Sequence record: PZ445535.1
DNA length: 44,793 bases
Direction: 5' to 3' (one strand)
DNA from: a phage
Shown: positions 2,920-44,793 of the stretch, piece after piece
Layout: each line of letters begins with the position of its first letter
Numbering within the stretch: position 1 is the stretch's first letter
Program-made: the position numbers and the translations under genes
Notes under the pieces: model-generated
The model's database searches: none
Seen by the model: the letters and a program-made list of their open reading frames with translations, nothing else
Told to the model about the DNA's origin: nothing

Positions 2920-4006
2920 CCAACGACTGGCGGATCGCATGATTCGCCGTCACATCTTCACCCAGCGCCTGAGCAACGAGCAGGCGCGTAAGGTGCTGGA
3001 GATGTGGCAAAAATTCCGACCTGCGTTATTGGGTAAGCTGACCGAGTTACTGGATGGCAAGAAGTCAATGAGCAATAAGGCGCTTACCACACTGCTAACC
3101 CAAATCGACAAGACGGTTAAAACCGAACTGCGCAACGAGTTTAAGGTGCTGGCTGAAGGTCTGGCGGAGTTCTCTGATACCGAGGCTGAATATCTGACAG
3201 ACACATTAACGGCAGCACTTCAACCGGCGCTTTCGGTCCCTGCCGTGGAGGTTGTTGGCGTAGTGACTGGTGCGCAGATTGCAGCGACGGCGATGAAAAA
3301 TCCATTCCTGGGGAATACGCTTTTGCAGTGGCCTGATTCTCTGTCAGAATGGACCAGAACGCAGATTAGTAACCAGGTGCGCGCCGGATTTATCCAGGGC
3401 AAACCTACTATGCAAATTATCGCGGACGTCAAGCGCGCATTAGGCGGTCGTAGCGCGCAGGCCATTTCAAGCGTGGTCAAGTCTGCGGTAAACCACTATG
3501 CGGCTACCGCACGCGAATTAATGGTAAAAGCAAATGATGATATTCTCGACGGTCGCCAGTGGCTTTCTACACTGGATACTCACACCTCCACGCTCTGTCA
3601 GTTACGCGATCGCCTGTTTTATCCGGTTGATGTTACTCCCGAAACAAAAGGGAAACGGGACGGTAAAGTGGTGGCTGGATCACAGTATGGCGCTGGTCCG
3701 GGCAAGCTACATTATTGCTGCCGCTCGACTGAGACGTGGAAAGTCAAAGGTATGGAAGATTGGCCCAGTGGTAAGCGTCCGGCACTGAAGGCTGAGGCGG
3801 GTAAACTGCTAAGTGAGCAGGTCAGCGCTAAAACGGACTTCTTCTCCTGGGTGCAACGGCAGCCTCGGCATATCCTTGAGGAATTATACGGAGTGCAGCG
3901 CGCGGACCAGATCCTGCGGGGCGTGAAAGTGCCGACCATGTTTAACGACGCAGGCGAGCTAATGACGATTCAACAACTAAAAAATAAGGGGTTATGGCGT
4001 GATTAA
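2903..4006 (+). CDS. head morphogenesis protein (Mu F / SPP1 gp7-like)
   Basis: 367 aa; overlaps portal stop by 17 nt; conserved-looking DTHTSTLC ... HYCCRS segment; position after portal. Confidence 0.6.
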   Translation: MPQKINQRLADRMIRRHIFTQRLSNEQARKVLEMWQKFRPALLGKLTELLDGKKSMSNKALTTLLTQIDKTVKTELRNEFKVLAEGLAEFSDTEAEYLTDTLTAALQPALSVPAVEVVGVVTGAQIAATAMKNPFLGNTLLQWPDSLSEWTRTQISNQVRAGFIQGKPTMQIIADVKRALGGRSAQAISSVVKSAVNHYAATARELMVKANDDILDGRQWLSTLDTHTSTLCQLRDRLFYPVDVTPETKGKRDGKVVAGSQYGAGPGKLHYCCRSTETWKVKGMEDWPSGKRPALKAEAGKLLSEQVSAKTDFFSWVQRQPRHILEELYGVQRADQILRGVKVPTMFNDAGELMTIQQLKNKGLWRD

Positions 4007-4307
4007 ATACGCAGCTATCGGATTGATTCTCGGCCTTGTAATTGGATTCTGGCAAGGTGACAACTACCGTGCTGGCGTGGTGGCGGAGGCGGCGCAAGAA
4101 GCGCAAGCCCAAGCCCAACGGCAGCAAACTAAGGTCATTCATAAATCAGTGCAGAACGAGCAGGCCCGCGAAGTGGAGTTCCGCACCGTTGAGAAAGAGG
4201 TGATTAAATATGTCACGCGTCCTGATCGCGATAATTGTAAGTTTGATGCTGACCGCGTGCGGATCAAGCAACGTGCCGTTGATGCCGCTAACGGAATCGG
4301 CAATTAA
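3999..4307 (+). CDS. i-spanin (Rz-like)
   Basis: 102 aa; GTG start; N-terminal TM segment AAIGLILGLVIGFW then charged Q/A/E-rich coiled-coil-like region; contains an embedded lipoprotein ORF in another frame. Confidence 0.6.
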   Translation: MIKYAAIGLILGLVIGFWQGDNYRAGVVAEAAQEAQAQAQRQQTKVIHKSVQNEQAREVEFRTVEKEVIKYVTRPDRDNCKFDADRVRIKQRAVDAANGIGN

Positions 4308-4440
4308 GCCGCCGTGTAAGTTTGAGTCACCATCGGAAGATCCAGATGAGGATTTAGCGATTGATGTGCGAAATATGAAATGTGGGGCTGAGCTAAGGGC
4401 GCAAGTGCTGGATTTGCAGGAATTAATTAAGGGGCCGTGA
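4210..4440 (+). CDS. o-spanin (Rz1-like) outer-membrane lipoprotein
   Basis: 76 aa; signal peptide with lipobox LTAC; Pro-rich; starts inside Rz ORF in a different frame and extends beyond it; RBS AAGAGG 9 nt upstream. Confidence 0.6.
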   Translation: MSRVLIAIIVSLMLTACGSSNVPLMPLTESAIKPPCKFESPSEDPDEDLAIDVRNMKCGAELRAQVLDLQELIKGP

Positions 4441-4455
4441 TGGCCCCCTTTTCTG
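4429..4455. terminator. bidirectional intrinsic terminator between convergent Rz1 and moron gene
   Basis: GGGGCC-GTGAT-GGCCCC hairpin followed by CTTTTCT on plus strand and by TTAATTAATT on minus strand. Confidence 0.5.
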
Positions 4456-5217
4456 TTAGCGCGGAATACCGCAAATCTCGTTTAGTGTTTTCACGTCAAG
4501 CGCTACTGCCGTTGACTTTTTCTCTTCCTGCGGGATGAACTGTTTAACTTCGGGCCATGCCTTAATAAGTTTGGTGTCTGTGGTGTATTTATTCAATGTT
4601 CCCATAACCGACAATTTAAACTCATCATATTTTGCACGTAAAGCCCGGCGTGCTTTGTCGTTCTTATCCAGACGTTTGCAAAACTCATGATCTGCCGGGT
4701 AATCTGCACGACCCCGCGGCATGTAGATCGGCACTTGCTCGCCTTCCTCGTTGAGTTCCACCAGCGCCGCAAGTAGCGCCGTCGCAAACCCCGGTACGAT
4801 TTCGCCAATATCAGGGGCCATCATGTTATTGAATTTATCCTCCCAGTACCCGCGATGGCAACGCCAGCTATAGTTATCGCCACTCAATGACAGTGTGCGA
4901 ATATTCCCGCCCATGTTGACTTCGAACGTTGCGTCATATACAGACCCGATGCCGTGGGGCATGTCTTTGTTATGGCTGAAGGTAGCGCGGCTGGCGTACA
5001 CGCTTATGCTAAACATATTGTTGTATGCGTCTTGAAAGCTGCGCATCATTTTCTGCAAACCGACGAAATTGGTAACACCTTCCGGCATCTGATCCATGGT
5101 GATAGCCATAGCAAGGTCGCGCGATTCGGCCATTATCTTTTTGGCCTGCTTCGTGATTTCGTGGTCGGCCAGGATGTTAGCCAGAATCTGCTTTTTAATG
5201 TCTTTGGTCAGTCTCAT
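4456..5217 (-). CDS. hypothetical protein (reverse-oriented moron in head module)
   Basis: 253 aa (MRLTKD...); RBS GAGGAA 6 nt upstream of ATG at 5217; own sigma70-like promoter; convergent terminator shared with Rz1; no motif recognised. Confidence 0.6.
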   Translation of the reverse strand: MRLTKDIKKQILANILADHEITKQAKKIMAESRDLAMAITMDQMPEGVTNFVGLQKMMRSFQDAYNNMFSISVYASRATFSHNKDMPHGIGSVYDATFEVNMGGNIRTLSLSGDNYSWRCHRGYWEDKFNNMMAPDIGEIVPGFATALLAALVELNEEGEQVPIYMPRGRADYPADHEFCKRLDKNDKARRALRAKYDEFKLSVMGTLNKYTTDTKLIKAWPEVKQFIPQEEKKSTAVALDVKTLNEICGIPR

Positions 5218-10862: not shown

Positions 10863-11190
10863 GTATCGGGACAAGCGGGACGTCCCGTTTTTGTCCCACC
10901 CATCCCGCCACACCGAAAACTGCATACCTATTCAGAAATACTGCATAAAACCAAAACGGGACAAAAACGGGACAAGCGGGACGTCCCGCCTCAAAAGTGC
11001 ATACCTATGCAATTTTCGTGCATAAAACAAACGGGACAAAAACGGGACAGATTCCGCGCGGGACAAAGCGGGACGTCCCGCCGTCCCAGTCAGTGCTGCC
11101 GCGGGTTTCAGCCGTTCGGGACAAGCGGGACAAAGCCCAGTCTTTCAGACTAGACGGGGGTCAATGGCCCCCCTCGTCTGAGACTGAATA
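10863..11190. repeat. iteron-rich element A (about 11 CGGGACA heptamers, three GGGACGTCCC palindromes, two ~78-bp tandem units, terminal G/C-rich inverted repeat)
   Basis: Non-coding 400-bp gap inside tail operon; heptamer CGGGACA at 10867, 10957, 10968, 11032, 11043, 11059, 11117, 11126 etc.; inverted repeat CAGTCTTTCAGACTAGACGGGGG...CCCCCCTCGTCTGAGACTG at 11138-11186. Confidence 0.8.
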
Positions 11191-11256
11191 AGGTTGGTTG
11201 CAAAATGACTGATACAATACAAACGGCAACTTGCATAAAAAGGGGGGGACTGCATA

Positions 11257-21415: not shown

Positions 21416-23329
21416 ATGGCAGCGGGTATACTTAACGTAACAAACAATAGCAAGGCCGTAACGGGGTCGGGCACGACGTTTACGTCATTGAAAGCAGGCG
21501 ACTTTTTATCGCTGGTGGTGGGGCAAGTCCCATACACCGTAGCGATCGAATCAATCCAGAGTAACACGGCGCTTACGCTGGTGCTGCCGTTTGACGGTCC
21601 GACGTCTACCGGTCTGGCCTGGTCGTCGGTTGACCGCGATACTATGTCACTGGCTACTATGGGCGTAACCGTGCAGGCGCAGAAAGCGCTACGTCTTATG
21701 ATCGCGGACGAAAATAACTGGCGTGCAATCTTCGGTGACGCAGAGCAAATCAGCGTTACACTACCCAACGGCACCGTAATGCAAGGTATGTCGTGGGGCT
21801 ACTTGTCCAGTCTGCTTAATGACGTAGACCCCGTTGAAATGCGCAACCTGCAACAGCAGGCTGAGACTGCTAAAAACCAGGCGGTAACCGCGAAGGGGCA
21901 AGCAGAATCGGCACGCGATGCTGCTAACACCGCGAAGACTGGGGCGGAGAATGCCCGCAACCAGGCTAACAATGCTAAAACCGACGCGCAGACGGCAAAA
22001 AGGCAGGCCGAAGCCGCTCGCGATGCTGCTGTCACTGCGAAGACTGGGGCGGAGAATGCCCGCAACCAGGCGCAAGGCTACCGAGATGAGGCGGAAGGTT
22101 TTAAAAACCAGATTAACCCTGCACTATTCGTGCAGAAGTCGCAAAACCTTAATGACGTTGCCGATAAAGCAGAGGCGCGCGCTAACTTGCAAGTTTTCTT
22201 TGCATCAAACTCTAACCTGGGAACTACAGACCTCAATACGCTCGACAGCACGAAGGAAGGGCGTTATTACCAGACCACCTCGGTGAACGCGACACCCGAG
22301 CGTAACTACCCGTTTCAGGAAGCCGGTTGTCTTACCGTGTTTAAAACGGGAGGGGGTAGTGTGGAGGCTTGCATCCAGGAGTACACCACGTTTTCAAGCC
22401 TGCGTCGGTTCGTCCGTTCGCTCGCTGGGGCGGTATGGACGGCGTGGAAGGAGATCTACCTGCAAGGGTCGTCCCCGACATACGAAAATATCGACTCGAC
22501 AGGACGAGTTAGATCTGAAAAGGCATATCCAGCATTCGAGTGGGTGTCGACGAGAGTAGCCGACGATTTCATCGGTAAGCGAGTCAGCATTGAGAACGAC
22601 ACAGGCGTTAATATGAATATGTTCTTCATGCAGAAAGACACAACCGCAAACAGACGTGTCGTAGCGTTCGCAAGGCCAAACTCTACTGTTTTCCACTTCG
22701 TAGGGTATAACGGCGGGCTACCTACAGACGGCAACAGCGCCCCGTCGAATAACATTAACTTTAACACGCAACCGCAAGGATGGCGTATGGTGTCCGGCGG
22801 CTGGCAAAATGCACCGCTCGATGGGAACAACTACGGGACTTTATTCACGCAGTGTGTGCAAGGTGTGTCGCAGGGGGATTCGAAAGACAACGGTACATCT
22901 GGCTTGTGGTATTCACAGCGATATGTTAATACCGATTCTAGGGTGTTCATCCGAAATCAAACAAACAACGCAGCCTGGGGCAGGTGGTATGAATTTACTA
23001 AAACGGCAGTCTCGGATGAACGCCTGAAGAATGTAAAAGGGGATTTGAATGTTGAAGGTGCGCTCGATAACATCAACCGCATGGAATTTAAAATATTCTC
23101 GTTTAAGGATGAGAAGGCTGGGAAGGGGTATCGTCGCGGTGTTATCTCGCAGCAGATTCGCCAGATCGATAAAGAGTACACGAAGGAGATCGGCGGGTAC
23201 TATCACCTCGACCAGACACCAATGCTACTGGATGCCCTCGCGGCAATTAAGGCGTTGCGTGCGCGTGACGAGGCTAATAAAGCAGAGATTGCAGAACTGA
23301 AAGCAGCGATCGCTGAATTGAAGAAATAA
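21416..23329 (+). CDS. lateral tail fiber with C-terminal intramolecular chaperone (S74-like) domain
   Basis: 637 aa; Ala/Asn/Gln-rich coiled-coil repeats; C-terminal SDERLKN...coiled-coil tail typical of self-cleaving fiber chaperone domains; RBS AAGGAG; bidirectional terminator downstream. Confidence 0.75.
   Translation: MAAGILNVTNNSKAVTGSGTTFTSLKAGDFLSLVVGQVPYTVAIESIQSNTALTLVLPFDGPTSTGLAWSSVDRDTMSLATMGVTVQAQKALRLMIADENNWRAIFGDAEQISVTLPNGTVMQGMSWGYLSSLLNDVDPVEMRNLQQQAETAKNQAVTAKGQAESARDAANTAKTGAENARNQANNAKTDAQTAKRQAEAARDAAVTAKTGAENARNQAQGYRDEAEGFKNQINPALFVQKSQNLNDVADKAEARANLQVFFASNSNLGTTDLNTLDSTKEGRYYQTTSVNATPERNYPFQEAGCLTVFKTGGGSVEACIQEYTTFSSLRRFVRSLAGAVWTAWKEIYLQGSSPTYENIDSTGRVRSEKAYPAFEWVSTRVADDFIGKRVSIENDTGVNMNMFFMQKDTTANRRVVAFARPNSTVFHFVGYNGGLPTDGNSAPSNNINFNTQPQGWRMVSGGWQNAPLDGNNYGTLFTQCVQGVSQGDSKDNGTSGLWYSQRYVNTDSRVFIRNQTNNAAWGRWYEFTKTAVSDERLKNVKGDLNVEGALDNINRMEFKIFSFKDEKAGKGYRRGVISQQIRQIDKEYTKEIGGYYHLDQTPMLLDALAAIKALRARDEANKAEIAELKAAIAELKK
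21911..22071 (+). repeat. 105-bp in-frame tandem duplication inside tail fiber gene
   Basis: 56-nt blocks at 21911-21966 and 22016-22071 nearly identical (AGACTGGGGCGGAGAATGCCCGCAACCAGGC); encode repeated ARDAA-TAKTGAENARNQA. Confidence 0.7.
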
Positions 23330-23332
23330 AGA

Positions 23333-23974: not shown

Positions 23975-24508
23975 TTATTTAAGTGCGTTAGTCACCAGTG
24001 TTTTTTCCATCTTGCGGAAGTCGTCCAGGGTCATCCGGATTTTAGACCCATCTTCGCCGTGCAACGTAACCAGTGGTTTAGTTTTCACTAAAACACCCTC
24101 CGGCAGCTTCCACGCTTCGACAGTTTTCTTCACTGCATCCTGGAAAGCGGTTGCAGCGATCTTGCCATCCAGCTTAACCGCTACGCCCTTCAGGCTGTCA
24201 AACTGTGCTGCCGTTGTGTCGATCTGGACCTCGTCGTGCACGGTGGCGTATGACTCACCCAGTAGAGCGGCATACGCTACCAGGTCGACGATGTTGTCTT
24301 CCCGGTGCTTGCGGTGCTGGCGTACCAGCTTCAGGCAAATCAAGAAGGTCCAGGCTTCTTGCTCGGTAAGGTCGCGACCGGTAAGCGCGTTAAACACGGC
24401 GGCAATTTGTTTAGCGATGCGTTCTTCTTTCGCGTTGCCATAGCCGTTTTCTTTTCCGCGCTGTTCCATAGTGGTGGCGGCGTTTTTGCAGTATTCGAAT
24501 GCTTTCAT
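23975..24508 (-). CDS. hypothetical protein
   Basis: 177 aa from ATG 24508 (MKAFEYC...); RBS AGGAG 7 nt upstream; sigma70-like promoter and 5' stem-loop upstream. Confidence 0.5.
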   Translation of the reverse strand: MKAFEYCKNAATTMEQRGKENGYGNAKEERIAKQIAAVFNALTGRDLTEQEAWTFLICLKLVRQHRKHREDNIVDLVAYAALLGESYATVHDEVQIDTTAAQFDSLKGVAVKLDGKIAATAFQDAVKKTVEAWKLPEGVLVKTKPLVTLHGEDGSKIRMTLDDFRKMEKTLVTNALK

Positions 24509-24554
24509 GGTTTGTCTCCTTTGACGGGAGGCGGTATTGCCTCCCGATGTGGTT

Positions 24555-24583
24555 AATATAATTGGTTGCATTATTGGTTGCAA
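24555..24583 (-). promoter_or_regulatory. sigma70-like promoter (TTGCAA-N17-TATATT) with 5' stem-loop
   Basis: Minus strand: cacTTGCAAccaataatgcaaccaatTATATT; GC stem-loop CGGGAGG...CCTCCCG at 24525-24546 at predicted 5' end. Confidence 0.45.
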
Positions 24584-25041
24584 GTGAATTTTGCAAGATT
24601 CACTGAATAAATGTGCGGGACCAGTTCTTCGCACGCCCGTTTGATGGCGGCTATGTTCTTCGCGCAGTCGTCAATGATGACCAGTTCGTTAACTTCTGCG
24701 TAGCACACCAGGCCAAATACGGAACGAGCTTTATATTCCGGCGGCGGGGTGTCATCCAGCATGTGGCGCAAGAACAGACGGCCTTTCGGGAATCGGTCTA
24801 ATTGCTCTTTCGTTGTCTCCCAGCATTCAGACTGGCGGTTTGACAGGTACGCGATGTCGAAGCCCTGTTTAGCGTACATGCGCAATAACGGCAGCATGTC
24901 ATAATTAATGTCTTCGCGGACGTGGGCCTTATGCCACTTCGCCCAAAACGTTGATTTAGTCTTGATCCCCGGAACTAGGTCGTCGCGCACACTGCTTGAC
25001 CCGTTGATAACGCCATCTAAATCGCAAATCAGTAGTTTCAT
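24571..25041 (-). CDS. HAD-superfamily phosphatase-like protein
   Basis: 156 aa; HAD motif I DLDGV at residues 7-11, then YLSNR and K...IIDD motifs. Confidence 0.55.
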   Translation of the reverse strand: MKLLICDLDGVINGSSSVRDDLVPGIKTKSTFWAKWHKAHVREDINYDMLPLLRMYAKQGFDIAYLSNRQSECWETTKEQLDRFPKGRLFLRHMLDDTPPPEYKARSVFGLVCYAEVNELVIIDDCAKNIAAIKRACEELVPHIYSVNLAKFTCNQ

Positions 25042-25259
25042 TTTAATTCCGCCATTAAATTTTCACGTACAATACGGGCCGAGAATGCGTCGCACACAAG
25101 ATGGCAACGCGCCGTCATGACAAGCCAGCCAGTTAGGTCAAGGCCCAGCAATTGATGTGGTTGGCTTGCGCGCCTTACTTTATTTCCAGGGAAAACCTGG
25201 TAGCGTTTAATTATTTCATCCACGACGCGAGGACTTCGGTCGACGACTAAGATATTCAT
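25038..25259 (-). CDS. hypothetical protein
   Basis: 73 aa; RBS AAGGTG 7 nt upstream; ATGA overlap with downstream gene. Confidence 0.4.
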   Translation of the reverse strand: MNILVVDRSPRVVDEIIKRYQVFPGNKVRRASQPHQLLGLDLTGWLVMTARCHLVCDAFSARIVRENLMAELK

Positions 25260-25725
25260 TTAATTCACCTTCGCTCATTATTTCGATTTGTGCGCTGCCG
25301 TTTGGCGGCACTTCTTCAAAGATTATCAATTGCTGGCATTTGTTGTTACTCGGCCCGACCTTACCGGTGACGGCGTGTATAAACCGGATCCGCCAGTCCA
25401 GCAAAATAATCAGGTTGGCTGTTTGCCTTGCCAGTTTGGCCCACTTCGTGGTCGTATCCTGGTTGAGCAACATTACCGTTCTACGCCCCTGCGATGCGCA
25501 AGTCACCCACGGCAGCGGGTCGGAATACGGCGGATTGCACCACTTCCACCCGGTTAACTCTGACCAGTCAGCATCAAGTGCGCTGTGCTCTTTCGTGAAG
25601 TAGCGCGGTAATAGATGGTTGTGGTCGCTCGCCGCCATGTCGTAGCGGAATTTAAACGCCTTGCGCAGTGGCTTAAATAAAGCGGGCGGCGTTCGCCAGC
25701 TATCCTTCTGCTCATTCTCCGTCAT
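25216..25725 (-). CDS. DNA N6-adenine methyltransferase (phage Dam-like)
   Basis: 169 aa from ATG 25725; N-terminal WRTPPALF and catalytic NPPY motifs; start overlaps upstream gene by 14 nt (translational coupling). Confidence 0.6.
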   Translation of the reverse strand: MTENEQKDSWRTPPALFKPLRKAFKFRYDMAASDHNHLLPRYFTKEHSALDADWSELTGWKWCNPPYSDPLPWVTCASQGRRTVMLLNQDTTTKWAKLARQTANLIILLDWRIRFIHAVTGKVGPSNNKCQQLIIFEEVPPNGSAQIEIMSEGELNEYLSRRPKSSRRG

Positions 25726-26176
25726 GCTGCGGGTCCAGTGCGTAAAGTGGGATCTGTTTGGCGCTTTCCCACAGGCGTTTAATTCTTTCCTGCTCGCCTT
25801 TACCCATCTGGCGCATGTCCGTACTATAGTTGCCGTTGGTGGTGTCACGCCACGCGATCAGCACAAGGTCTTTACGGTCGATCTTCGTTGTGCGGCCTTT
25901 CGGACGGACGTATTCTTCAGCACGTTTGCAATGCTCGCGCAGGGCATCGGCGGTTAGCCGGGTGAGCGATACGGATGTTGTGTACCCGGTGCGCTGCATA
26001 ATGGTGATCAGTTCGCCCAGCAGTTCGAAGCGTTCCGCCAGTTCCTTGCGGGCCTTCTCTTCGGCTTCATAGCTTGCCAGGTAGGTATTTGCCAACGCGG
26101 TAGCGCCGTCCGCTTTCTCGCGGGCTTCAAGACACTGTGCTACCCAGTACGCTTTTTCTTCTTGTAAAATTTTCAT
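25712..26176 (-). CDS. hypothetical protein
   Basis: 154 aa; RBS GGAG 8 nt upstream; TAATG overlap with upstream gene. Confidence 0.5.
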   Translation of the reverse strand: MKILQEEKAYWVAQCLEAREKADGATALANTYLASYEAEEKARKELAERFELLGELITIMQRTGYTTSVSLTRLTADALREHCKRAEEYVRPKGRTTKIDRKDLVLIAWRDTTNGNYSTDMRQMGKGEQERIKRLWESAKQIPLYALDPQHDGE

Positions 26177-26418
26177 TATTTAGTCTCCGTCATGCGAATC
26201 TCATTTTGTGGGATAAATTTGCCGTTCATCTCTACCCAGCAGGATCCGTGCCGCCACTGGGTGTTACGACCGGTTTGCTCCGCATACACAGTCACGCATT
26301 CGTACTTCTCGAAGTGATACGTGCAGGAGGAAGGCATAATGATGCAAAAAACCACTATTAGCACCATCCACACCCATAACCGCAAATCACCGTCGTAATC
26401 TAAAAAGAATCGTTTCAT
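26176..26418 (-). CDS. small membrane protein
   Basis: 80 aa; hydrophobic segment WVWMVLIVVFCIIM; RBS GAGGA 7 nt upstream; first gene after promoter at 26465-26493. Confidence 0.45.
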   Translation of the reverse strand: MKRFFLDYDGDLRLWVWMVLIVVFCIIMPSSCTYHFEKYECVTVYAEQTGRNTQWRHGSCWVEMNGKFIPQNEIRMTETK

Positions 26419-32422: not shown

Positions 32423-33193
32423 TTAACGGCGGCGACGTTTACGTGGCGCTTCGTCGTCGTCCTCATCTTCGTCATCGCGTGGTTTACGACGTTTGCGAGG
32501 TTTTTCGTCTTCGTCTTCGTCGTCGTCATCGCGGCGCTTGGACTTTTTGGACTTACGCGGCTTGTCGTCATCGTCATCACGACGTTTTGACTTTTTGGAC
32601 TTACGCGGGCTTTCATCTTCGTCATCGTCGCCCAGGTCTTCGTCGGAACATGAAGACCCGCCACCGCCGAAGGCTTCGCCGTCATCACGGAAGCGCATAC
32701 CCAGCAGACCACAGCCTAAGCCTTTGCCGTTGGTATTGTTCCAGGCCCAAATATCTAAGGAAACGTTGCAATAGCAACCGGAATAGATTTCCTTCCCTTC
32801 GATTTCGTCGCCGTCGATGGTCAGACCCTGCTCCGTCTGCTTCTCGCCTTCGGAAGTCTGGATGATCGGCTGTTTGAATGATTTGGCATTGATGTACAGC
32901 TTTCCTTCAAACTCTTCCGTCACTTCTTCACGCTCGTCACCATCACGAACTGCACATTCTTTCGAATCCTGTGCGTAGTGGCGGTCCATCCACTTATCGG
33001 CGTTCTTTTCAGACTTCAGCTTTTCGGTGAGCACTGCGCGTGCCGCCGCTTCCACTTTGTCCACCTGCGGATCTTCTTTATCAAGAATAATCACCGCACG
33101 AAATGCCGGTTTTTGTCCATCCTGTTTAGGGGTATCACGCTCCCAAATTTTCAGGAAGCATACACGTACATTTTTCAGGTTGACTTTAGCCAT
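32423..33193 (-). CDS. ssDNA-binding-like protein with charged repeat tail
   Basis: 256 aa from ATG 33193 (MAKVNLKNVRVCF...); RBS GAGGAA 7 nt upstream; C-terminus built from 16-aa DDDDDKPRKSKKSKRR repeats; SSB assignment is from N-terminal pattern and context only. Confidence 0.45.
   Translation of the reverse strand: MAKVNLKNVRVCFLKIWERDTPKQDGQKPAFRAVIILDKEDPQVDKVEAAARAVLTEKLKSEKNADKWMDRHYAQDSKECAVRDGDEREEVTEEFEGKLYINAKSFKQPIIQTSEGEKQTEQGLTIDGDEIEGKEIYSGCYCNVSLDIWAWNNTNGKGLGCGLLGMRFRDDGEAFGGGGSSCSDEDLGDDDEDESPRKSKKSKRRDDDDDKPRKSKKSKRRDDDDEDEDEKPRKRRKPRDDEDEDDDEAPRKRRRR
32537..32609 (-). repeat. 48-bp tandem repeat in SSB-like gene tail
   Basis: GACTTTTTGGACTTACGCGG at 32541-32560 and 32589-32608 (forward strand); encodes two DDDDDKPRKSKKSKRR units. 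Confidence 0.7.
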
Positions 33194-33257
33194 TTTCCAA
33201 TTCCTCAATTTGCATGTATCGGGGTTATTAGAAGCCACCCCGTCCGGCTTGGTTGCT

Positions 33258-33286
33258 AATTTACTTGGTTGCGTTTCCGCGGTCAA
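33258..33286 (-). promoter_or_regulatory. candidate promoter for SSB-like gene (TTGACC-N17-TAAATT)
   Basis: Minus strand: TTGACCgcggaaacgcaaccaagTAAATT; motif copies CGCAACCAAG / AGCAACCAAG. Confidence 0.35.
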
Positions 33287-39030: not shown

Positions 39031-39068
39031 GTGTAGTGCTAAATAAGTGAATAGTTATGCAAAATAAG

Positions 39069-39240
39069 TGCATAAAACAAACGGGACAAAAACGGGACAA
39101 ACTACAAGCGGGACAAAACGGGACGTCCCGCCGTCCCCGTCAGGCGTGGTGCGGATTTGAGGCGAACGGGACAAGCGGGACAGACCACAGTCTTTCAGAC
39201 TAGACGGGGGGTATTGTCCCCCCTCCGTCTGAGACTGCAT
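39069..39240. repeat. iteron-rich element B (second copy of element A core)
   Basis: 32-mer GTGCATAAAACAAACGGGACAAAAACGGGACA identical to 11018-11049; GGGACGTCCCGCCGTCCC; CGGGACAAGCGGGACA; G6/C6 inverted repeat at 39188-39237. Confidence 0.8.
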
Positions 39241-39396
39241 AAAATCTCTGGTTGCATAATCAACGGCAGCATAGTGAAAATTGCGGCGGGGGTAGATCTC
39301 GGCAACCAATGCATGTTGGATAATGGAGAGTGAAAAATGCAGTTTGCAATTGCAACTCATAGCGATCAGCATTTCCATGCGCGTGATTGATATTGG

Positions 39397-39453: not shown

Positions 39454-39759
39454 ATGAGAGCATTAATCTGGAGTTACACATCAGCGGTCGCAGCGCTCTA
39501 TGAAGCGAAGCACACAAACGGCAACGCCGACCACGCACGCCAGGCTGTCATGTTCGCGCAGCAGGCAATCTTTGCAGCGTTCGACAACATGGACGCCAGC
39601 CTGGATGAACTGGAACCATTGCGTGTGGCAATCTGCGAGTATGCGATGAAATTCGCCCGTGAGCGTCTTGCTTACCGGTTTGGCATCGGCGAAACGGCGA
39701 CGGCTAACATCGCCCGCATTCAGGCCCAGCGTGAGCTACACGCCTTACTTGCGAAATAA
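39454..39759 (+). CDS. hypothetical early protein
   Basis: 101 aa; RBS GAGGA; first gene after promoter TTGCAT-N17-TATATT. Confidence 0.5.
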   Translation: MRALIWSYTSAVAALYEAKHTNGNADHARQAVMFAQQAIFAAFDNMDASLDELEPLRVAICEYAMKFARERLAYRFGIGETATANIARIQAQRELHALLAK

Positions 39760-42762: not shown

Positions 42763-43905
42763 ATGCACCCTCAAACCAAAATTACAGACGAGCAGTTGAT
42801 CGCCGAAATCCAGGCGGGAACGACCGCGAAAGATATTGCTAAGAAATACGGGATTGCACTGCGCAATGTTTATATGCGCAAAGCACGCTTATCTAAAAAG
42901 GGAATCGGTCACGGTAATGATGCCGTAATTCGTAAGCGGGTTGCCGATGGCTTCGGCGTGAAGCGTGTCTCCGCCCTGGTGCGTGGCAATGGCGAAGAGG
43001 TCATGTCATGGGTTATCACAGAACAGGACAAAGAGCGACAGCTTGAGGCGATGCGCGCAGTGCTGGACGGCATGAACAGCGAAATCACACCGGCAGCACC
43101 AGTAAGCGCCCCGCCAGTACCGATCCAGGCGCTTGACCTGCTCAACCTGTACACCGTGTCTGACTTCCACCTGGGAATGCTGGCATGGGGCGAGGAGACT
43201 GGCGAAGACTGGGATATGGCGATTGCCGAAGACCTGTTCTACCGCTGGTTTGTCGAAGCCTTCGCACGCGCACCGGACGCAGGCACTGCCGTAATTAATA
43301 TCCTCGGTGATATGGCGCACTTTGACAGTCTCGATGCCGTTACTCCCGCCAGTGGTCACATCCTTGACGCCGACACCCGCTACCAGAAGCTGGTCCGCTA
43401 CATGATTCGCATGGTGCGCAATGTGGTGGAACTGGCACTACAGAAGCACCACAAAGTCAAACTGCTAATTGTGCAGGGCAACCATGACGAAAGCGGAATG
43501 ATCTGGCTGGCGGAGATGTTCGCTACGCTGTACGAGAACGAGCCGCGCGTTGAGGTAGACACGTCGCCAGATGTCTATAAGATGGTCCAGCACGGTAAGA
43601 CTACGCTGTTCTTCCACCACGGGCACAAGGCTAAATTTGACGCTATCGAGCCGGTCATGATTTCGAAATTTCGTGAGGCGTTCGGGTCCAGCCAGTACAG
43701 CTATGCGCACGTAGGCCACCTGCACCACCAGAAGATTGTCGAATCGCGCAACATGATTGTTGAACAGCACCGAACGCTTGCCGCGAAGGACGCCTACGCC
43801 AGCCGAGGCGGTTGGATGAGCGGACGCAGTGCAAACGTGATAACCTATAGCGCGAACTACGGTGAAGTAGCACGCTTAACCATTAGCCCGGAAATGTTGA
43901 AATGA
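42763..43905 (+). CDS. HTH domain - metallophosphoesterase fusion protein
   Basis: 380 aa; N-terminal HTH-like TAKDIAKKYGIALRNVYMRKARL; calcineurin-like motifs SDFHLG (DxH), ILGDMAHFD (GDxxD), QGNHDE (GNHD/E), HHGH, GHLHH. Confidence 0.6.
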   Translation: MHPQTKITDEQLIAEIQAGTTAKDIAKKYGIALRNVYMRKARLSKKGIGHGNDAVIRKRVADGFGVKRVSALVRGNGEEVMSWVITEQDKERQLEAMRAVLDGMNSEITPAAPVSAPPVPIQALDLLNLYTVSDFHLGMLAWGEETGEDWDMAIAEDLFYRWFVEAFARAPDAGTAVINILGDMAHFDSLDAVTPASGHILDADTRYQKLVRYMIRMVRNVVELALQKHHKVKLLIVQGNHDESGMIWLAEMFATLYENEPRVEVDTSPDVYKMVQHGKTTLFFHHGHKAKFDAIEPVMISKFREAFGSSQYSYAHVGHLHHQKIVESRNMIVEQHRTLAAKDAYASRGGWMSGRSANVITYSANYGEVARLTISPEMLK

Positions 43906-44114
43906 TTAGACAAGTATTCATGAGCACGCAGGCCGCACGCCTGGCTGAATTACGCAAACAACTGGAAGGATTGCGCCGATTCGAGCGCACAGCGGCAGCG
44001 GTAGGAATGAGTATGTCGGAACGGATCGAGATACTCACTCAAATTCGCCACACAGAGGGCGCTATCGAGGCAGTTACCGGTATGCTGACAAGATACTACG
44101 GTAGACCCGTTTAA
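43902..44114 (+). CDS. hypothetical protein
   Basis: 70 aa; ATGA overlap with upstream gene; intrinsic terminator downstream. Confidence 0.45.
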   Translation: MIRQVFMSTQAARLAELRKQLEGLRRFERTAAAVGMSMSERIEILTQIRHTEGAIEAVTGMLTRYYGRPV

Positions 44115-44123
44115 CCGCACTAC

Positions 44124-44148
44124 AGGCCCGCTTATGCGGGCTTTTTTG
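44124..44148 (+). terminator. intrinsic terminator upstream of terS promoter
   Basis: GCCCGC-TTAT-GCGGGC hairpin followed by TTTTTT. Confidence 0.7.
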
Positions 44149-44173
44149 TGTCTGCAATTCTCCCTGATATAAT
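44145..44173 (+). promoter_or_regulatory. extended -10 promoter (TGaTATAAT) for terS-terL operon
   Basis: Perfect TATAAT at 44168-44173 preceded by TG at 44165-44166; weak -35 TTTGTG; 6-bp stem-loop in leader at 44180-44196. Confidence 0.5.
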
Positions 44174-44242
44174 CAAGACAGGTGGTTGGGCCACCTCCTA
44201 TGTTGCCGATGGTCGGCGCATATGTATAAAGGGGTTATTATC

Positions 44243-44793
44243 ATGGCAGAAATCAAAGTAAAAGGCCGTCGTGCGAAGTTAGACGGGCGAGTCGCAGTCA
44301 CTCCACGCCGCAAACCGGGCGAGCAAACCGAACATACCAATCTCGGACCTGAAATCGAATACGGCAAGCGCCGGAAAGGGGGCAAGTGTGGTCGTCCTAC
44401 TGATTATCGGTCTGTTTATTGTCGCCAGTTGCGAGATTATTTCGCTTCAGCCGACGCATGGCAAGTCAACTACTCGGACAAGGGCGCGGCGCAAGTCATC
44501 CCACGTAACAAGATGCCAACATTTGGGCGCTTTGCGGCGGAAATCGGGGTCGGCGTAGCATGTCTGTATCGCTGGGCGCGTAAGCATGAAGAATTCGCCG
44601 AGGCGATGGCTGACGCTATGGAACTGCAAAAGACCTTCCTCATGGAAGCTGGCGGCGTGACTATCGCAGCAGGCTTCGCTGCATTCCTGCTTAAAGCAAA
44701 CCACGGCGTCCGCGACGATGCACCGCTGGAAGATGACGACGATGATAACGGCGACGTAACCGTTGAGCCGGTCGGTAAAGGGCAGGGCGAGTG
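44243..44793 (+). CDS. terS: terminase small subunit-like protein (3'-partial in window; stop overlaps position 1 if circular)
   Basis: Open frame from ATG 44243 (RBS AAAGGGG) to window end with no stop; HTH-like FGRFAAEIGVGVACLYRWARKHEEF; codon 184 would be T-G + A(1) = TGA overlapping terL ATG; strong extended -10 promoter upstream. Confidence 0.5.
   Translation, partial: MAEIKVKGRRAKLDGRVAVTPRRKPGEQTEHTNLGPEIEYGKRRKGGKCGRPTDYRSVYCRQLRDYFASADAWQVNYSDKGAAQVIPRNKMPTFGRFAAEIGVGVACLYRWARKHEEFAEAMADAMELQKTFLMEAGGVTIAAGFAAFLLKANHGVRDDAPLEDDDDDNGDVTVEPVGKGQGE

Follow-up and report, generated by a model that had tools for sequence, protein, structure and literature searches.

Completion of the terS gene across the ends of a Dhillonvirus-type phage record that begins at terL

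Phages P22 and Sf6 are headful packagers, and their small terminase subunits (P22 gp3 and Sf6 gp1) belong to a TerS family related to the protein described here, the gene lying directly upstream of terL in the same manner. Within the genus Dhillonvirus, PhageTerm analyses have indicated headful packaging for Opt-212 (PMC9022532), headful packaging with a pac site for UDS3lw (PMC13348001), and headful (pac) packaging of a permuted genome for BF9 (PMC10059673); another of these three phages is described as terminally redundant (PMC9022532, PMC13348001, PMC10059673). The nearest TerL proteins outside the genus are those of Jerseyvirus and Kagunavirus, with a moderate similarity of ~40-41% amino acid identity over 88% of the length, and Jerseyvirus is reported to package by the headful route with pac initiation (PMC10783031). 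Dozens of GenBank records already carry the arrangement of terS and terL discussed below in their annotation, and Dhillonvirus relatives share with the present genome the 1-base overlap between the two genes, the upstream terminator, the leader hairpin, and the 26-nt leader element. However, the records of these relatives begin at terS or elsewhere, whereas the record analyzed here (PZ445535.1; the whole stretch of 44,793 bp is referred to as the window) begins at terL. As a result of this layout, the packaging operon (terminator, promoter, leader, terS, and terL) straddles the record ends, with the following features:

44124..44150, plus strand: intrinsic terminator found by a terminator scan, with an 8-bp GC-rich stem (AGGCCCGC/GCGGGCTT) and a T-run
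44145..44173, plus strand: candidate extended -10 sigma-70 promoter for terS-terL, with TG at 44165-44166 and TATAAT at 44168-44173
44180..44196, plus strand: leader hairpin, AGGTGG(T)-loop-(G)CCACCT, kept in a distant clade as AGATGG...CCGTCT
44199..44224, plus strand: invariant 26-nt untranslated element, TATGTTGCCGATGGTCGGCGCATATG, with a small hairpin (GCCGA/TCGGC) inside it and the ATG at 44222 as its last three bases
44228..44234, plus strand: Shine-Dalgarno-like run, AAAGGGG (AAAAGGG in the distant clade), separated by 8 nt from the ATG at 44243
44243..44793, with the third base of its TGA at position 1, plus strand: terS (small terminase subunit), 183 codons
1..1386, plus strand: terL (large terminase subunit), 461 aa, the A of its ATG also belonging to the terS stop

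Translation from 44243 yields 183 sense codons without a stop and leaves a T and a G over at the end of the record, in agreement with the first-pass annotation, which had described a reading frame that stays open to the final base. That annotation had also proposed that the T-G at 44792-44793 forms a TGA with the A at position 1, overlapping the terL start (TGATG). The proposal is exact: the product is 183 aa long, the junction reads ...GGCGAGTG|ATGCGTAAC, and the terS stop and the terL ATG have a single base in common. The identical 183-aa TerS, ending at the same stop, has been called on at least 24 public contigs, and the exact protein is indexed in 33 blocks of the contig collection; these are independent metagenome and SRA contigs that have the junction in their interior. 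At all six of the loci listed, the final base of the stop is also the first base of the following gene, which in five of the six is a 461-aa terL. At the nucleotide level, a contig from run DRR848672 (L004) matches the junction at 99.94% identity over 6243 nt with 0 gaps, and gapless matches are also seen with L007 (98.0%), L003 (97.5%), and an IMG/VR contig (97.7%). A longer stretch is covered by L025, also a DRR848672 contig, all 16,629 nt of which align at 99.65% identity to the circularized window, running from 39070 through the 44793->1 join to 10896; L026 is 99.76% identical to the circularized window. An identical TerL is on record for just two contigs, of 16.6 and 8.2 kb, and an identical tail-fibre protein (21416-23326) for none. 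An exact 42-mer spanning the junction is contained in a 43,953-bp IMG/VR contig, and a 1200-nt junction query is recovered as one contiguous BLAST piece in 156 of the 157 matching phage records. The junction has no missing or duplicated base, and the join of 44793 to 1 is real, uninterrupted sequence.

The relatives of the window demonstrate the same continuity on the scale of the whole genome. The first 20 kb match 159 records at 80-90% identity, the closest being Escherichia phage Ioannina (OQ589852) and Dhillonvirus LM40P1 (OZ035746), each at ~90% over this interval. Whole-genome BLAST against Ioannina (45,270 bp, with a record marked circular) places 42,023 of the 44,793 bases of the window in one collinear series that wraps the record ends, window positions 44222-44792 corresponding to Ioannina 1-571 and window positions 1-21987 to Ioannina 573-22563. 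Gene order and genome size are alike in the window and in both relatives; the aligned blocks are 76-95% identical to Ioannina at the nucleotide level (mostly 89-95%) and 81-95% identical to LM40P1, whose TerL shares 99.3% amino acid identity with that of the window. Compared with the nucleotide identity of at least ~70% over the genome that defines membership in Dhillonvirus, blocks of 76-95% identity to Ioannina and LM40P1 cover 94% of the window, and its length of 44,793 bp is inside the genus range of 43.7-45.9 kb. The gapless junction matches in independent assemblies, together with collinearity with complete genomes, uphold the earlier suggestion that the window is a full genome linearised at terL. 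The window is one complete genome, that of a virulent siphophage of the Dhillonvirus (HK578/SO-1-like) type, with E. coli and related enterobacteria as its hosts. High confidence attaches to the explanation as a whole, in which this 44,793-bp genome has been rotated to terL; it would be packaged by the headful route, with a likely promoter of its own for terS-terL and probable translational coupling of the two genes. Species are usually delimited at 95% nucleotide identity. Given ~90% identity over the first 20 kb and 42,023 of 44,793 bases aligned, the identity of the window to its closest relatives is probably below this level, and the genome probably represents a distinct species-level lineage at ~90% to the nearest record (August 2025 collection).

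Two regions are the only large ones that are unmatched or weakly matched in the closest relatives. The first, 21988-23330, encodes the C-terminal portion of the tail fibre and is replaced or divergent; the second, 24188-26188, carries minus-strand genes and aligns at 76% to Ioannina genes for a methyltransferase and an acid phosphatase. Both are likely variable modules for host range and anti-restriction. No hits were obtained when the whole window was scanned with Rfam and for tRNAs.

The appearance of terS running off the end of the record is only apparent and is a product of the linearisation of a circularly permuted map. The two ends of the window share no direct repeat of 10-400 nt, so the record is a trimmed circle rather than a contig with repeated ends. 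The assembly would have been closed to a circle and then rotated to make base 1 the A of the terL ATG, and this rotation would have severed terS one base before the end of its stop and moved the gene to the far end of the record. Since the terL coding sequence begins precisely at base 1, the re-orientation was most probably done by software. Starting phage genomes at terL is a standard option of Pharokka (terminase mode) and Dnaapler (bioRxiv 10.64898/2026.08.09.738482), and the convention of these programs, with base 1 at the start of the terL coding sequence, is likewise followed in the window. Annotation of the record needs circular treatment, without which terS is lost or called partial. 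The finding is an ordinary layout effect in a heavily sampled genus and contains nothing novel.

Upstream of terS, the terminator at 44124-44150 closes a unit that holds the genes at 42763-43905 and 43902-44114, and its stem-loop and T-run are kept in 18 of 18 aligned relatives. Directly 3' of this terminator, a perfect TGnTATAAT (TGATATAAT) occupies intergenic positions 44165-44173. An extended -10 promoter at 44145-44173 had been proposed to drive the terS-terL operon; the -10 portion of that proposal rests on a perfect and conserved motif, whereas its -35 portion fares less well. The best -35 is TTGTGT at 44146-44151, which has 3 of 6 matches, stands at a 16-nt spacer, and falls inside the T-run of the terminator, and the site at 44145-44173 went uncalled in a scan for the sigma-70 consensus (weak -35). 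Amongst the aligned relatives, a perfect extended -10 (either TGATATAAT or TGTTATAAT) is kept between the terminator and terS in 18 of 18. In the distant clade (~80% identical), a perfect TGTTATAAT is found ~11 nt upstream and the position of the window's TGATATAAT is deleted; in the window's own clade, the motif at this upstream, ancestral position has degenerated to TGCAATTCT. Support for the promoter comes from conservation only: that each clade keeps the motif, at a shifted position, argues for function, and terS-terL likely has its own promoter, with the packaging operon predicted to start at this extended -10 just past the terminator. A turnover of the promoter is also visible in the alignment, as TGATATAAT is located on a ~12-nt insertion in the window's clade and the loci L012-L024 are without the insertion and keep TGTTATAAT.

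Alternatively, terS-terL may have no promoter of its own and may depend on transcription that continues into it from the lysis and phosphoesterase genes (read-through), TGATATAAT being incidental. Such a reading is compatible with the weak -35 and the failure of the consensus scan to call the site, as well as with the orientation of the genes, all of which are on the same strand from ~39454 to terL. The number of similar motifs in the genome also agrees with it, in that TGNTATAAT occurs twice in the window against 0.86 expected, and 21 of 100 shuffles reach 2, so that two matches per genome are at chance level. Transcripts arriving from upstream would nevertheless have to pass the strong conserved terminator (44124-44150) that lies directly before the operon, and both clades hold a perfect TGnTATAAT at positions ~11 nt apart despite differing spacers, which is the pattern expected under selection. 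Read-through as the explanation is unlikely.

The start of terS itself allows a second reading, since the ATG at 44222, 21 nt upstream of 44243, is in frame. A gene beginning there would encode 190 aa. The upstream ATG is open and invariant in 18 of 18 aligned relatives, and the GenBank record of Ioannina annotates terS as bases 1-573 (190 aa), i.e., from the equivalent of 44222. However, this ATG is without a Shine-Dalgarno sequence, and the AAAGGGG sits instead 8 nt before 44243. The seven intervening codons vary non-synonymously between clades (MYKGVII, MHKGVII, MTKGVII, and MNKRAYI), while the remaining TerS is 91-95% identical. Gene callers picked the 183-aa form on all contigs, and the PHROG profile starts at residue 4 of this form. 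The longer product is accordingly thought rather unlikely, and the start at 44243 is favored with good confidence.

The leader between the candidate promoter and terS contains two conserved elements. In the hairpin at 44180-44196, two differences separate the clades: a G-C pair replaced by A-T, which is compensatory, and an A to G change giving a wobble pair. The element TATGTTGCCGATGGTCGGCGCATATG is invariant in all aligned relatives, across both Dhillonvirus clades, and no invariant run is longer in a 14-genome alignment of ~3.7 kb covering the two terminase genes; it is present as an exact match in 14 IMG/VR contigs and is single-copy in the window. The RNA fold predicted for the terS leader is no stabler than that of shuffled sequence (z = -0.18). 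In SPP1, pac is located upstream of terS in the promoter-leader region, and in P22 and Sf6 it is located inside terS; the placement in SPP1, unlike that in P22 and Sf6, would fit a reading of 44199-44224 as a packaging site. The idea that the 26-nt element and the covarying hairpin form the Dhillonvirus pac site or a TerS autoregulatory operator is speculative and more probably wrong than right by a wide measure, and a plain role in mRNA stability or translation is just as possible for the element. A TerS-binding site and a translational operator are further candidates for its role. If true, the pac reading of 44199-44224 would define a packaging origin for the genus.

The protein encoded by terS matches PHROG 3064 ('terminase') with E = 2.1e-71 and over its full length up to residue 183. 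Against Pfam, the match to PF16677 (GP3_package) covers profile positions 1-102 of 105 with E = 1.7e-5, and its 25.4 bits are below the cut-off of 29.4, which places the window's TerS outside GP3_package at the gathering threshold. A HMMER search with a seven-sequence TerS profile against 1.84 billion representative proteins recovered 1813 relatives at E <= 0.001. The resulting alignment of 96 sequences (95 homologues and the window's TerS) contains 82 matches to GP3_package (best 5.7e-14; the count includes the sub-threshold match of the window) and 31 to Sf6_terminase, all at E <= 0.001. The family profile reaches the structures of Sf6 gp1 with E = 6.9e-5 through a GRPxxY motif and a helix with W..H.eF; a search of PDB sequences with the single TerS returned only noise, and Sf6 gp1 was reached by the broad family profile alone. 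The AlphaFold model of TerS is poor (mean pLDDT 59), with core residues 51-137 at 70-86. A small terminase of the P22 gp3 type would have a DNA-binding helix-turn-helix at its N terminus, followed by long helices for oligomerization. The modeled order is a helix at 58-68, a beta hairpin, helices at 94-100 and 105-114, and a long helix at 116-153. The top five PDB matches of this model are all to chains of the P22 gp3 nonamer (3P9A), with non-significant values (E = 0.03-0.09, TM ~0.3), and the predicted likeness to the P22 gp3 fold is only suggestive. Compared with P22 gp3 and Sf6 gp1, the window's TerS is extended at its N terminus by a basic segment of ~50 residues and also carries an acidic tail. 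Its gene has the position of a small terminase gene, being directly upstream of terL and co-oriented with it, with a stop that overlaps the terL ATG. The product is classed here with the P22 gp3/Sf6 gp1 small terminases, as a divergent protein that does not pass the threshold for membership in a Pfam family.

The identity of terL is more directly established. Both domains of the product score above threshold in Pfam (Terminase_6N, 53.6 bits with a cut-off of 22; Terminase_6C, 30.2 bits with a cut-off of 22.6), and the protein matches PHROG large-terminase families; a search of PDB sequences gave no match at E <= 1. The terL frame has a stop at 44776, and its only start candidates are the GTG at 44791 and the ATG at 1. 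Among the relatives, the GTG is not a conserved codon (24 loci). In 24 of 24 loci of related phages, the overlap T[G/A]A|TG is kept, the stop being either TGA or TAA. Variation in the second base of the stop thus leaves both the stop and the overlap intact, which is the pattern expected under selection. Termination-reinitiation is an established behavior for stop/start overlaps of this type. Ribosomes ending at the terS stop could restart on the overlapping terL ATG, and judging from the arrangement of the codons, terL is probably translated by termination-reinitiation coupled to terS. In one metagenome contig (L006; ENA BEDA17-1 scaffold_2039, 3552-4905), terL is called as two genes of 194 and 274 aa, and at ~3790-3834 of the junction query its alignment with the window is interrupted, which suggests an indel, a frameshift, or an assembly error.

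Circularity, as described above, is a property of the genetic map and not of the virion molecule, and the record ends are not the physical ends of the DNA. For Dhillonviruses, the virion DNA is reported to be linear (PMC9022532, PMC13348001, PMC10059673). Headful packaging from a pac site would cut concatemers into virion DNA that is linear, terminally redundant, and circularly permuted. The kinship of the TerS to those of P22 and Sf6, together with the nearest outside TerL (Jerseyvirus, ~41%), fits this mode of packaging. By analogy with the relatives from which the end type is borrowed, the virion DNA of the present phage is most likely linear, terminally redundant, and permuted. A virion genome with fixed cos ends, whose circular map would result from end-joining, cos ligation, or concatemers, is a very unlikely alternative in light of the available comparisons. 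It draws on Dhillonvirus EE09, for which PhageTerm predicted a 10-nt 5' cos end, ATCTTAAGGG (PMC10673088). Against this single prediction, the three other Dhillonviruses gave headful or pac results, the EE09 assembly is described as ~97% complete, and the TerS family groups with those of the headful packagers (P22 gp3 and Sf6 gp1). Moreover, ATCTTAAGGG has no exact match in the window, and its one match with a single mismatch is at chance level. Headful packaging is retained here as the preferred reading, with ends as proposed above.

Two Dhillonvirus records from different laboratories, UDS3lw (PQ658967) and PTXU06 (MK373789), have as base 1 the same homologous base, corresponding to window position 39353, which is 101 nt before the gene at 39454; the HH3 record starts ~107 nt further upstream. 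The shared start was considered as evidence for a pac site and rejected, as the PTXU06 paper used no end-mapping software; the two records probably follow a convention taken over from one to another, and the position is probably not a mapped end.

The remaining possibility, that the window is a mere fragment of a longer contig in which the TG|A join is coincidental and terS continues otherwise, is effectively refuted by the exact 183-aa TerS ending at the same stop on at least 24 contigs, the gapless alignments through 44793->1, the whole-circle collinearity and equal size with complete Dhillonvirus genomes, and the PHROG 3064 alignment (profile 1-173 of 175), which reaches the final TerS residue, 183.

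Elsewhere in the window, several repeats and dispersed motifs were observed. A non-coding direct repeat of ~180-215 nt with 83% identity is present at 10995-11206 and 39045-39260, one copy preceding the tape-measure gene and the other following the primase/helicase gene. Each copy contains a GGGACGTCCC palindrome and a long terminal hairpin. Both copies are kept in Ioannina and LM40P1, and the DRR848672 contig breaks there. In each copy, the motif CGGGACA forms same-strand clusters, with 13 of its 14 occurrences in the window located in 10867-11132 and 39082-39182 (5.9 expected window-wide). Tandem repeats were found within two coding regions, namely a 105-nt duplication with 80% identity at 21857-22066, within the tail-fibre gene (21416-23329), and repeats of 48-54 nt rich in GTC/GAC at 32433-32612, within a minus-strand ORF (32423-33286). 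The 10-mer TGCAACCAAT occurs 21 times in the window with <=1 mismatch, against 3.3 expected. Its occurrences are usually paired, 12-31 nt apart, at gene boundaries (e.g., 5241/5255, 21371/21388, 24561/24573, 26472/26489, 29438/29450, and 39392/39423), and none is near the terS promoter; from this distribution, TGCAACCAAT is probably an operator or a promoter-associated motif.
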